Assembly (NCBI RefSeq): GCF_057098645.1
Contig: NZ_CM169472.1
Strand: one strand, 5' to 3'
DNA: 64,000 nt
Of the stretch, positions 47,670 through 51,511 are shown in pieces. The notes beneath the pieces were generated by a model. The model saw only the letters and a list, made by a program, of their open reading frames with translations, had not been told where the DNA came from and did no database searches. Each line of letters opens with the position of its first letter. Position 1 is the stretch's first letter. The position numbers and the translations under genes are program-made.

Positions 47670-49934
47670 ATGGCGCACCCCGGACGTCACTTTTTTGCCA
47701 GCGCGCGCGGGCGATTGCTGCTTTTGAATTTGCTGGTGGTGGCGGTGACGTTGATGGTCAGCGGCGTGGCGGTAATGGGCTTTCGTCATGCCAGCCAGAT
47801 GCAGGAGCTGGTGCAGCAGCAAACGGTGGATGATATGACCGGCAGCCTGAATCTGGCGCGCGACACGGCAAACGTGGCAACGGCGGCGGTGCGATTGTCG
47901 CAGGTGGTGGGAGCGCTGGAATATAAAGGCGAAGCCGAGCGGTTGCAGGAGACACAGCGGGCATTAAAAAGCTCGCTTGCACAACTGGCGAACGCGCCTT
48001 TAGCGCAGCAGGAAGCCGGGCTGGTGACGCGCATCATCACGCGTAGCAACGAACTGCAAACCAGCGTCGGCGGTATGCTGGAGCGCGGGCAAAGGCGGCA
48101 TCTGGAGCGCAACGCGCTGTTAAGTTCGCTGTATCAAAACTTAAGTTATCTGCGGCATCTGCAAAAAGTCACTCACGCGCAAGATGATATTTTGCTTAAC
48201 GAGATGAACCGACTAATTGTTGCCGCTATTGCCACCCCCGCGCCGCAGGCGATTATTCATCAACTGGTCGGGGTAATGTCTGCGTTGCCGACCCACAGCG
48301 ATACGCCATTGGTTAATACGTTACTCAATGATTTCAATGATGAAATGCGTAAACTCGCGCCGCTTTCTGCCGCTCTGGAGCAAAGCGATCTGGCAATCAG
48401 CTGGTATATGTTTCACATCAAAGCGCTGGTGGCGATCCTCAATGGCGACATCAACCGTTACGCCGAACAGGTGGCGACGCTCTCCGGTCAGCGTGTGGCG
48501 CAAAGTTACCAGGATTTGCGCTCCGGCGAGAGGGTGATCATGATTTTCGCCCTGTTAGCGGTGGTGATCACCGCGTTTGCCGGCTGGTATATCTATCGCA
48601 ACCTCGGCACTAACCTGACGGCGATTTCCCGCGCCATGAGCCGCCTGGCGCACGGCGAAGCGGACGTCACTTTTCCGGCGTTACAGCGGCGTGATGAGTT
48701 GGGTGAACTGGCGCGCGCCTTTAACGTTTTTGCCCGCAATACCGAGTCACTCGAACGAACCTCACGGCTGCTAAAAGAGAAGACCACGCAGATGGAGATT
48801 GCCCAAACTGAGCGGCAGGGGTTGGAAGAGGCGCTATTACACAGCCAGAAACTGAAAGCGGTCGGGCAACTGACGGGCGGGCTGGCCCATGATTTTAATA
48901 ATCTGCTGGCGGTGATTATTGGCAGCCTGGAGCTGGTGAATCCGGACTCGCCAGACGCGCCGCGAATACAGCGGGCGCTGCAAGCTGCCGAACGTGGGGC
49001 GCTACTGACACAACGACTGCTGGCGTTTTCCCGCAAGCAGTCCTTACATCCGCAAGCCGTTGAACTGAAAACATTGCTGGAAGAGTTAAGCGAATTAATG
49101 CGCCACTCCTTACCGGCAACGCTGGCGCTGGAGATTGAAGCGCAGTCTCCGGCGTGGCCCGCGTGGATTGACATCAGCCAACTGGAAAATGCCATCATCA
49201 ACCTGGTGATGAACGCCCGTGACGCGATGGAAGGGCAGACGGGAATCATCAAAATTCGTACCTGGAATCAGCGCGTTACTCGCAGCAGTGGGCAGCGTCA
49301 GGACATGGTGGCACTGGAGGTCATCGATCATGGCAGCGGTATGTCGCAGGCGGTGAAAAGCCAGGTATTTGAGCCATTCTTTACCACCAAACAGACGGGC
49401 AGCGGCAGCGGGCTGGGGTTGTCGATGGTCTATGGTTTTGTGCGCCAGTCCGGTGGGCGCGTTGAAATTGAAAGCGCGCCGGGGCAGGGGACAACGGTCA
49501 GATTACAGCTTCCCCGCGCGCTGACGGCGGCGAAAAACCTATCGCCAGCGGCAGTAGAACAGGCTTCTGTCAGCGGCGATAAACTGGTGTTAGTGCTGGA
49601 AGATGAAGCCGCGGTGCGCCAGACCATCTGCGAACAGTTGCACCTGCTGGGCTATTTGACGCTGGAAGCAAGCAGCGGCGAACAGGCGCTGGATCTGCTG
49701 GCGGCATCAGCAGAAATCGATATTTTTATCAGCGATTTAATGCTCCCCGGCGGCATGAGCGGCGCAGAAGTGGTCAATGCGGCCCGCAAACTTTACCCGC
49801 ACCTGACGCTGCTACTCATCAGCGGTCAGGATTTACGCCCCAGCCATAACCCCGCGCTGCCAGACGTGGCGCTGTTGCGCAAACCCTTTACCCGTGCGCA
49901 GTTGGCGCAGGCGCTGGGGCAAATTGAGGGATGA
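47670..49934 (+). CDS. Hybrid sensor histidine kinase (periplasmic sensor, HAMP, HisKA, HATPase, C-terminal receiver)
   Basis: Start trimmed to ATG 47670 (MAHPGRHFF...); two TM segments flanking a roughly 270-aa helical periplasmic domain; H-box GGLAHDFNNLL; ATP lid DHGSGM, GSGLGLS; receiver with Asp in IFISDLMLPG. No HPt domain. Confidence 0.85.
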   Translation: MAHPGRHFFASARGRLLLLNLLVVAVTLMVSGVAVMGFRHASQMQELVQQQTVDDMTGSLNLARDTANVATAAVRLSQVVGALEYKGEAERLQETQRALKSSLAQLANAPLAQQEAGLVTRIITRSNELQTSVGGMLERGQRRHLERNALLSSLYQNLSYLRHLQKVTHAQDDILLNEMNRLIVAAIATPAPQAIIHQLVGVMSALPTHSDTPLVNTLLNDFNDEMRKLAPLSAALEQSDLAISWYMFHIKALVAILNGDINRYAEQVATLSGQRVAQSYQDLRSGERVIMIFALLAVVITAFAGWYIYRNLGTNLTAISRAMSRLAHGEADVTFPALQRRDELGELARAFNVFARNTESLERTSRLLKEKTTQMEIAQTERQGLEEALLHSQKLKAVGQLTGGLAHDFNNLLAVIIGSLELVNPDSPDAPRIQRALQAAERGALLTQRLLAFSRKQSLHPQAVELKTLLEELSELMRHSLPATLALEIEAQSPAWPAWIDISQLENAIINLVMNARDAMEGQTGIIKIRTWNQRVTRSSGQRQDMVALEVIDHGSGMSQAVKSQVFEPFFTTKQTGSGSGLGLSMVYGFVRQSGGRVEIESAPGQGTTVRLQLPRALTAAKNLSPAAVEQASVSGDKLVLVLEDEAAVRQTICEQLHLLGYLTLEASSGEQALDLLAASAEIDIFISDLMLPGGMSGAEVVNAARKLYPHLTLLLISGQDLRPSHNPALPDVALLRKPFTRAQLAQALGQIEG

Positions 49935-50346
49935 TTTTCAGAATTTATCAAGAGGCCTGAAGCAAATGTGCTGCTATTGTGAGCAATTCTGTTCTGAATG
50001 GGATATAAAAGGAATTATGCCAGTACTGACAAGAGGCGATTCACATATGATCGTGATGCCAACCACCTATAGCGATTTCAGTGTTTGTATTAGACACTGA
50101 ACAAGGGGCATTTTGGCCTTATGATGGCACGAAAGTGATCTACGATGGCGGTTGCATTCCGGAAGAGCGTATCTGGAGTATTTCACCGGATCAAAAATGT
50201 CATGGCATTGTGCTGGTGGCGGAAAATAAACAGCGAGCTAACCAGCTAATGGAAGAGTCTGCGCCTTACCGAATTTGAGATTACTCCGCTACTCCGGTCA
50301 TTCACACTCAACTAACGTTAAGCCAGTCCATCGCAGAGACTGGCTT

Positions 50347-50676
50347 ATGAAACCTTACTCCACGCTTTTTCTTTTCAGCCTGCTCACGCTGACCACCGTA
50401 CCGGCCCAGGCCGATATTATCGACGACACCATTGGCAATATTCAGCAGGCGATTAACGATGCTTATAACCCTGACCGTGGGCGAGATTATGAAGATTCGC
50501 GCGACGACGGCTGGCAGCGTGAAGTGAGCGACGATCGGCGCAGACAATATGACGACCGCCGTCGCCAGTTTGAAGATCGTCGCAGGCAACTGGACGATCG
50601 CCAGCACCAGCTTGATCAGGAGCGTCGGCAGCTAGAAGATGAAGAGCGGAGAATGGAAGATGAGTATGGGCAATGA
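50347..50676 (+). CDS. yjdP: Secreted low-complexity Arg/Asp/Gln-repeat protein
   Basis: 109 aa from MKPYSTLFLFSLLTLTTVPAQA; repeated DDRRRQ-type units; upstream of phnP as in K-12. Confidence 0.75.
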   Translation: MKPYSTLFLFSLLTLTTVPAQADIIDDTIGNIQQAINDAYNPDRGRDYEDSRDDGWQREVSDDRRRQYDDRRRQFEDRRRQLDDRQHQLDQERRQLEDEERRMEDEYGQ

Positions 50677-50752
50677 TGTTGGGTATGGAGCAGGCATCGC
50701 CCCTCTGGGGAGAGGGTTAGGGTGAGGGGGCCAGCACGCACATTCCCTCTCA

Positions 50753-51511
50753 TCACGCCACCCCAATCTCCATCCCATCAAACCCCGCCTCAAACCCCGA
50801 CGGCAGTGTGTTTTCCATCAGCCATGCATCAAACTGATGGCTGATGTGCGTCAGAATCACGCGCGGCGAGCGGATAACCTGATTCAGCGCAAGCACGGTA
50901 TTTAAATCACAGTGATTACGCGGTGCATCCTCGCACGGCGGGTGGCTGCAATCAATCACCATTACCTGCGGCTGATTATTGCGTAAAAATTTCAGCGTTT
51001 TTTCCGGCAAGCCAGCGGTGTCAGACAGCCACGCCACCCGGCTGTGCGCCGTTTCCAGCAGATAACCGAAGGTCAGTTTTGAGTGGTTGAGCGGCAGGGG
51101 CGTGACCTGTAACCCCTGCAAATCAAACACCACAAACGGTTCCACCGTGTGGCTGAAATCAAGCAGGTCCGGATGTTTAAACAGATCGTCGCAGCCCTGT
51201 TCATCCGGCGGGCCGTAGACCGGGATCGGATCGCCCACGCCCCAGCGCAGCGGAAACAGCCCCTGGACGTGATCCATATGGTAGTGCGTCAGCAAAAACT
51301 GCTGGAACGATCCTGGCGACCAGCGAGCGGTGAGATCGTGCAGCCCGGCGTCGATCAGGGTGATCGCCTCGTTAAACTTCACTACGCCGCTGCACGGTTG
51401 GCGGCGATAGTGCGGTGAGCGCCGCGCTCTGGCGCAGGCCGCACACTCGCAGCCCCATGCCGGAACGCCCTGTGCGCCGCCGGTGCCGGTGAGCGTGAGG
51501 GTCAGGCTCAT
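50753..51511 (-). CDS. phnP: Phosphonate-pathway cyclic phosphodiesterase (MBL fold)
   Basis: 252 aa, HYHMDH metallo-beta-lactamase motif. Confidence 0.9.

Follow-up and report, generated by a model that had tools for sequence, protein, structure and literature searches.

What kind of protein is encoded by yjdP, a small gene whose product is named after its repeats, and is the number of these repeats free to change? The gene lies in a stretch of 64,000 nucleotides of contig NZ_CM169472.1 (assembly GCF_057098645.1), which is called the window here. A preliminary description of the locus, based on the letters of the window, had depicted a secreted low-complexity protein made mostly of nine-residue units (DDRRRQ, then Y, F or L, then E or D, then D), in effect a charged coiled or disordered periplasmic polymer whose repeat number could vary between strains. 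We found that the repeat array is a constrained structural element and not a drifting polymer. For the protein as a whole, the explanation that we favour with moderate confidence is an exported periplasmic YjdP, which would be regulated by the Rcs system and carry a constrained heptad helix braced by salt bridges.

The open reading frame (ORF) is exact, and its translation runs from the ATG at 50347 to the TGA at 50674-50676 and gives 109 aa. The product is 100% identical to the annotated yjdP product of E. coli O145 RM9872 and matches the NCBIfam equivalog NF041443 with 148.7 bits (cutoff 90, E 5e-44), residues 1-103 being aligned to positions 1-101 of the 101 in the model. YjdP and its repeat are an already catalogued and named family, because the name given by NCBI, “DDRRRQL repeat protein YjdP” (NF041443), itself describes the repeat. 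PF28054 “YjdP” is precomputed on proteins with 97-99% identity and on every homologue listed; a local Pfam-A scan returned sub-threshold noise only, from a library copy which may be without the PF28054 model. The gene was found in almost all complete E. coli genomes (99.6%; 5,404 of 5,426), and the window protein has the same architecture as all 73 orthologues examined, a full-length set from about 25 genera including Escherichia, Citrobacter, Enterobacter, Klebsiella, Raoultella, Kosakonia, Kluyvera, Leclercia and Buttiauxella.

Periodicity and constraint of the heptad array

The autocorrelation of the protein has its maximum at lag 7 (55% identity over residues 61-109; z=7.1; 0 of 2,000 shuffles) and further peaks at its multiples, 14 and 21. 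The DNA shows corresponding signals against codon shuffles, with z=5.0 for a lag of 21 and z=5.7 for one of 42. The full protein can be written as MKPYSTLFLFSLLTLTTVPAQA/DIIDDTIGNIQQAINDAYNPDRGRDYEDSRDDGWQREVS, the slash marking the predicted cleavage site, followed by the array units DDRRRQY, DDRRRQF, EDRRRQL, DDRQHQL, DQERRQL, EDEERRM and EDEYGQ. Tandem Arg/Asp/Gln units had thus been recognized correctly, with a period of seven residues and not nine, as the unit written down earlier includes the start of the next one. The extent was overstated: it is the C-terminal half that is repetitive, and the array takes up 48 of 87 mature residues (about 55%), the rest being a non-repetitive amphipathic N-terminal segment and an acidic linker. 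The mature chain is 53% charged with a net charge of -10, and the orthologues range from -5 to -13.

At the DNA level the 21-nt units are mutually just 33-76% identical, and Tandem Repeats Finder called no array in 50200-50800 with the minimum score taken down to 30. A super-period of two heptads (42 nt) is visible in 50530-50613: the DNA signal at lag 42 exceeds that at lag 21, with agreement at 16 of 21 nt between units 1 and 3 and at 15 of 21 between units 2 and 4. Together with a 42-nt duplication in E. albertii, this suggests that the array grew by duplication of 14-aa blocks.

To see how the heptad number behaves, homologues of different length were compared. Their lengths fall in exact heptad steps (95, 102, 109, 116 and 123 aa), with deletions or duplications at differing junctions. 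For example, the E. coli alleles P0116 and P0084 are without FEDRRRQ, P0046 and a Shigella boydii allele are without RRQLDDR, and P0037 is without EDEERRM, while E. albertii has alleles of 95, 102 and 123 aa and two Citrobacter alleles have 116 aa. Two copies of GATCGCCGC, spaced by 21 nt, flank the P0116 deletion, and the 123-aa allele of E. albertii is a fresh, exact 42-nt duplication; whole units would apparently be gained and lost by slippage between direct repeats of 7-10 nt which lie 21 or 42 nt apart.

Such changes are rare. A query of 178 nt from the array was covered to at least 80% in 5,384 of 5,405 complete E. coli records (about 99.6%) with an identity never below 90%, and 59 of 60 rows of a systematic sample span exactly 178 nt. 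The P0116-type junction, which is the commonest 21-nt deletion, occurs in 16 of 5,426 complete genomes. The P0046-type junction was read as absent from the same 5,426 genomes, there being no full-length match of at least 99% among the best-ranked rows for a query that also aligns in register to undeleted alleles. Array variants amount to about 0.3-0.4% of complete E. coli genomes, with junction counts that leave out P0037, P0014 and the +21 duplications. Besides, two genomes carry larger lesions: in FLI21 an insertion of IS1X2 deletes the 5' half of yjdP, and in 2024CK-00535 an in-frame deletion of 72 nt (GWQ/...RRRQ/LDD) leaves 85 aa, about three heptads fewer.

Across genera the array is kept as well. 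Six hydrophobic residues, one per heptad, are retained in about 70 of 73 orthologues, and the length differences between genera (101-116 aa) lie mostly in the acidic linker. The ratio of nonsynonymous to synonymous substitution rates (dN/dS) is 0.06-0.20 for the whole gene and 0.03-0.11 for the array, synonymous sites being saturated between genera (dS >1.8). The sequence and the number of the heptads are both under purifying selection. The repeat-number variation that had been expected does exist as in-frame whole-heptad alleles, though rarely, and it does not extend to free variation across genera. An invariant length and a lack of periodicity had been named beforehand as the signs that would speak against such a repeat; the length proved near-invariant and the periodicity was confirmed, so that one half of this pair was observed. 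Near-identical tandem DNA units and frequent changes of copy number between close relatives, which are usual for a locus with a variable number of tandem repeats (VNTR) or a contingency locus, were not seen in the array, in which Tandem Repeats Finder called nothing, the units are far from identical and variants are scarce.

Predicted helix, export and the upstream box

A monomer model was built by AlphaFold2 with an alignment of 28 sequences. In this model residues 54-108 form one unbroken helix with a predicted local distance difference test (pLDDT) of 91-97, which supports a charged helix as the predicted state of the array and contradicts the earlier term “disordered”; for the term “polymer” nothing was found. 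Most of the invariant columns of the family are held by the amphipathic segment in front of the linker, residues 23-40.

The charges of the long helix are arranged in a regular way. Opposite charges are paired at i+4 in 18 cases against 9.8 expected (z 3.4) and at i+3 in 15 against 10.0 (z 2.1), while like-charge pairs are depleted (2 against about 9.5; z about -3.2). Such spacing of Asp or Glu and Arg permits salt bridges from i to i+3 and i+4, which would stiffen the helix in the way known from charged single alpha-helices. At every seventh position stands a hydrophobic residue (Y68, F75, L82, L89, L96 and M103), with a conserved Gln just before it. In the heptad register of the array, position a reads YFLLLM, d reads RRRREEE and g is Q; a canonical coiled-coil core is therefore absent, since d is Arg or Glu throughout. 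Besides, the net charge is not even over the helix: heptads 1-3 have +1 each, and the final two have -2 and -3.

The description of a signal peptide proved right. The N-terminus, MK-PYSTLFLFSLLTLTTV-PAQA/D, has by rule-based assessment the n-h-c layout of a Sec signal peptide, namely a positive n-region, a hydrophobic h-region (7-15 residues by the rule) and small residues at -3 and -1, and the A-x-A site is conserved in 70 of 73 orthologues, whose signals are 19-23 residues long. No lipobox (L-[AS]-[GA]-C) was found, nor any Cys in the window protein, so YjdP is not a lipoprotein. Export via Sec with cleavage of the signal would follow from these features. We picture YjdP as a small Sec-exported periplasmic protein across Enterobacteriaceae, whose mature chain of 87 aa would consist of an amphipathic N-terminal helix, a variable acidic linker or tether and a charged helix of about seven heptads (about 55 residues, or about 8 nm). 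Along this helix the seventh residues would align into one narrow hydrophobic seam flanked by Gln, a likely contact for self-association or for a partner.

The upstream region holds a second conserved element. Each of the 73 full-length orthologues has a box of the form TNRGAN4TCY, or TG(A/G)GA-N4-TC(C/T), placed between -70 and -75 relative to the ATG (consensus TGAGATTCCTCCGC, about 72 nt before the ATG). In an alignment of nine species with differing flanking genes, the box makes up the only invariant upstream columns, apart from three bases of the -10 noted below, and the upstream sequences are otherwise unalignable between species. The RcsB homodimer box has been published as TN(G/A)GAN4TC(T/C)NA, with crystallised and validated sites in rprA (TTGAGACGAATCTGA, -33 to -53) and osmC (TGAGATTTATCCTA) (PMC7913699). 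The yjdP box agrees with this pattern at 7 of its 8 specified positions and with the osmC site at 10 of 14, and its left half and spacing are a perfect RcsB half-site.

The position of the box is also suggestive. Of 75 orthologous promoters, 63 have a TAnnnT hexamer precisely 37 nt downstream of the box's first base, and T117, A118 and T122 of this -10 are invariant in the nine-species alignment. The centre of the box is 30.5 nt upstream of TAnnnT, which would put it at about -42.5 from the predicted start, adjoining the -35 as in rprA. A generic sigma-70 scan did not call this conserved promoter, because it has no good -35. Transcription would most likely start from an activator-dependent promoter with an RcsB-type box at about -42.5, which would place YjdP in the Rcs envelope-stress regulon. 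Consistent with this, yjdP RNA rises 9.5-10.6-fold under LolCDE inhibition, and the list of induced genes also has osmB, bdm, wca genes, rcsA, yjbEFGH, ivy and mliC (PMC5105897). We are fairly confident, from the conservation and position of the box, that RcsB controls yjdP directly. The conserved box and -10 are new here.

Alternatives and known systems

The least probable of the other explanations is that the ORF arose by chance in a GC-rich non-coding spacer, a chance that is next to nil; its small size and low complexity are all that would fit, and it is refuted by conservation, the frame and signal peptide being intact in at least 73 species, with dN/dS far below 1 and curated family models. 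Very improbable, too, is a disordered charged polymer whose repeat number drifts or switches as in a contingency or VNTR locus. It would account for whole-heptad indels at several junctions in E. coli, Shigella, E. albertii and Citrobacter and for the many indels of 1-3 codons in CGC-rich runs of yjdP, but it is largely refuted by the pLDDT above 90, the low dN/dS of the array, the scarcity of variants, the retained hydrophobic residues, the divergence of the units and the empty Tandem Repeats Finder result. A classical coiled coil, forming a stable parallel dimer or trimer like the periplasmic fibre of Lpp, deserves more weight, though we regard it as unlikely. The strict heptads with a hydrophobic residue at every seventh position would suit it, the helix is about as long as that of Lpp, and a profile search of the sequences of solved structures gave weak matches which are all coiled coils, natural or designed (tropomyosin at E 0.039, two designed antiparallel-coiled-coil constructs and GCN4). 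Against it, only position a is hydrophobic and d is Arg or Glu; a linker-fused dimer gained no confidence in AlphaFold2, and a Foldseek search of the fused-dimer model against the PDB returned nothing at E <0.001.

The fourth alternative concerns the box, which might be bound by another activator, either a heterodimer of RcsB (with RcsA, BglJ, GadE or MatA) or a regulator of the FixJ/NarL type, the induction under LolCDE inhibition then being indirect via sigma-S or Cpx. We give this a small chance. It draws on the right half-site, which ends in GC and not in the consensus NA, on the conserved block, which reaches beyond the 14-mer, and on the mixture of regulons in the LolCDE list; however, the perfect left half and spacing, the agreement with osmC and the position, which mirrors that of rprA, speak for RcsB, and no CpxR motif (GTAAA) or sigma-E-like motif was seen by eye in 50200-50346.

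Several points weigh against the exported, Rcs-regulated protein with a constrained helix that we favour. The heptad number is not absolutely fixed, since alleles of 85, 95, 100, 102, 116 and 123 aa exist, and among the listed proteins labelled E. albertii the 102-aa form is the one on the largest number of contigs. AlphaFold yields a lone long helix of high pLDDT for coiled coils and single helices alike, Asp favours helix formation less than Glu, the usual acidic residue of charged single helices, and the fused dimer (predicted template modelling score 0.44, with helix pLDDT below that of the monomer) is uninformative on self-association. The yjdP box is without the final A of the published 14-mer, and in the window its short pattern shows no enrichment (10 matches, 17 expected), which leaves conservation and position to carry the weight. 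Targets of sigma-S and Cpx are in the LolCDE list as well (PMC5105897), and co-induction therefore does not single out RcsB. In the literature, no study of the function, localisation or regulation of YjdP was found, nor data on yjdP in rcsB mutants.

Several known systems resemble YjdP in part. Like the charged single alpha-helices (CSAH or ER/K type) of myosins and caldesmon, among others, it has acidic and basic blocks, an enrichment of opposite charges at i+3 and i+4 and a long predicted helix. Unlike these helices of Glu, Lys and Arg, it uses Asp and Arg, carries a periodic hydrophobic seam and conserved Gln, is bacterial and predicted to be periplasmic, and is about 55 residues long. A CSAH is stable as a monomer and has no hydrophobic seam, and the conserved seam of YjdP sets it apart; a canonical coiled coil is hydrophobic at both a and d, and YjdP has YFLLLM at the former and RRRREEE at the latter.

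Braun's lipoprotein Lpp is a small exported enterobacterial heptad-repeat helix of about 55 residues. YjdP is likewise small, predicted to be exported and essentially one heptad helix of that size, and its length is apparently under selection. It differs in having neither the lipobox Cys, nor the C-terminal Lys for attachment to peptidoglycan, nor a hydrophobic d position from which a trimer core might be deduced, and the two share no sequence similarity. With CpxP, Spy and ZraP it has in common that it is small, predicted to be helical and exported, and inducible by envelope stress; the LolCDE list that names yjdP contains spy and cpxP too. It is acidic overall, whereas they are basic, and it has a repeat architecture; the LTXXQ motif is absent from its sequence, and no Pfam hit to the CpxP/Spy family was obtained. 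Among promoters, those of rprA, osmC, bdm and osmB share with that of yjdP a TGAGA-N4-TCC box just upstream of a weak -35, at about -42.5, and yjdP is induced together with the Rcs regulon; it departs from the consensus of RcsB-activated promoters by the last base of the box, and its dependence on RcsB is putative. Hydrophilins and proteins like the late embryogenesis abundant (LEA) group are defined by more than 6% Gly and high hydrophilicity. This class was considered and rejected, as YjdP is highly hydrophilic but has only 4 Gly in 87 residues (4.6%).

The computations themselves establish the ORF, its family, the periodicity, the spacing of charges, the conservation, the frequencies of alleles and the conserved operator with its -10; export with cleavage, helicity in vivo, activation by RcsB, slippage and service as a length-defined periplasmic rod or adaptor under stress are inferred from them. 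A bolder version would make YjdP a direct RcsB target that acts as a periplasmic strut or adaptor of about 8 nm in envelope stress, with some lineages, including those labelled ST131, tuning its export or anchoring through a hypermutable repeat in the signal peptide (described below). Such a role would account for the retention of six seam residues in about 25 genera; taken as a whole, we find this version quite improbable.

The signal-peptide repeat and the surroundings of yjdP

The common length polymorphism of yjdP sits in the signal peptide and not in the array, which is new here. At codons 11-16, the window reads SLL-TLT and K-12 reads TLL-TLS; in some strains the site is occupied by perfect 9-nt units, (ACGCTGTTC)n, which encode (Thr-Leu-Phe)n. 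A query of pure repeat matched 509 of 5,426 complete E. coli genomes (about 9%), always within yjdP and with 2-11 overlapping matches each. Alleles of 3, 4, 5, 6 and 7 units (112, 115, 118, 121 and 124 aa) were read directly, and their mature sequences are identical. Calibrated on the sequenced alleles, the number of matches equals the number of units minus one, with the exception of a 4-unit variant with ACC in the first unit, which gives 2; the match counts then imply alleles of between 3 and about 12 units, 5 being the commonest number. Several records with the repeat are labelled O25b:H4-ST131. In a systematic sample of 60 rows with the K-12 gene as the query, the site was longer by 9-45 nt in 8 rows, and no row differed by 21 nt in either direction.

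With the expansion, an h-region of 15 residues grows to 18-30 residues or more. A longer h-region can hinder cleavage or turn the signal into a membrane anchor. No publication mentioning the Thr-Leu-Phe repeat was found in the literature. It could serve as a typing marker, and it offers a natural experiment on h-region length and export.

The coordinates of the features are collected in Table 1.

Table 1. Features of the yjdP locus in the window
Feature	Position	Strand	Remarks
Conserved RcsB-box-like operator, TGAGATTACTCCGC	50276..50289	+	within conserved block 50273-50292, ATTTGAGATTACTCCGCTAC
Putative -10 hexamer, TAACGT	50313..50318	+	transcription start predicted near 50325
yjdP coding sequence	50347..50676	+	109 codons and stop; ORF, NF041443, conservation
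Signal peptide, residues 1-22	50347..50412	+	n-h-c layout; predicted cleavage AQA/D
Imperfect 9-nt proto-repeat, codons 11-16, SLLTLT	50377..50394	+	site of Thr-Leu-Phe expansion elsewhere; window allele unexpanded
N-terminal amphipathic segment, residues 23-40, DIIDDTIGNIQQAINDAY	50413..50466	+	helix predicted with moderate confidence, pLDDT about 64-73; hydrophobic moment 0.52
Acidic low-complexity linker, residues 41-61	50467..50529	+	pLDDT low over 41-53; long helix starts at about residue 54
Heptad array, residues 62-109	50530..50673	+	about 6.9 units of [DE][DE]RRRQ[YFLM]; lag-7 periodicity; predicted helix, pLDDT 91-97

The signal peptide is the least constrained part of yjdP, with a dN/dS of 0.59 in the comparison with K-12 (array 0.07). 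The window allele differs from K-12 by an E. albertii-like signal peptide (MKPYSTLFLFS...), by His87 and by a C-terminal Gln (Arg in K-12). Its signal peptide and 5' flank are of the type found in E. albertii, Escherichia sp. E1V33 and Shigella boydii and not of the K-12 type (MKRFPLFLLFT...). Upstream of the gene, at 47670-49934, lies the hybrid histidine kinase/response regulator of island OI-167 of enterohaemorrhagic E. coli, which replaces als-rpiB of K-12 and is known as lmvK (PMC10128022). An annotated pseudogene fragment of a GNAT acetyltransferase (50075-50278) ends right at the conserved operator. The difference in dN/dS and the type of the 5' flank hint at an exchange of the 5' end along with the island.

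Elsewhere the upstream neighbour is rpiB (K-12 and Citrobacter) or a transporter, and in the window it is the remnant of the OI-167 island. The chromosomal position of yjdP is kept: the gene either follows rpiB or borders the 3' end of the phn operon, where it is convergent with phnP; in C. rodentium and E. fergusonii no phn genes are beside it. yjdP is monocistronic and retains its box beside changing neighbours. No operon partner is conserved that could give a clue to a function.

On the other side, the spacer between yjdP and phnP measures 146 nt in K-12, 76 nt in the window and 27 nt in UTI89. It holds a G-tract element, GCCCCTCTGGGGAGAGGGTTAGGGTGAGGGGGC, at 50699-50731 of the window. A hairpin/G-quadruplex element, which may or may not correspond to the one in the window, is listed between the two genes in K-12 (PMC5100583). 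The RNA of the 76-nt spacer folds no better than shuffles (z=+1.4), no intrinsic terminator was called after yjdP, and Rfam gave nothing relevant on 49900-50800.

Two database observations are added for completeness. A record titled “Chryseobacterium sp. 18061” (CACSKA010000007.1) contains a typical enterobacterial yjdP with the conserved operator and is probably a mislabelled or contaminated assembly. A table of chromatin immunoprecipitation and expression data (PMC5217608) lists yjdP among the genes repressed by some regulator, with a binding site inside the gene, and carries no weight in the reading given here.

In conclusion, the repeat finding by itself adds nothing to what was catalogued for YjdP; what is added is a probable regulon assignment, a length constraint on the array and a signal-peptide repeat in other strains. 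The promoter element present in every orthologue points to direct Rcs control. For a protein encoded in 99.6% of complete E. coli genomes there are now three testable handles, namely the promoter element, the constrained helix and the Thr-Leu-Phe repeat, and the constrained helix of near-fixed length argues for a specific structural or binding role of YjdP in the stressed envelope.

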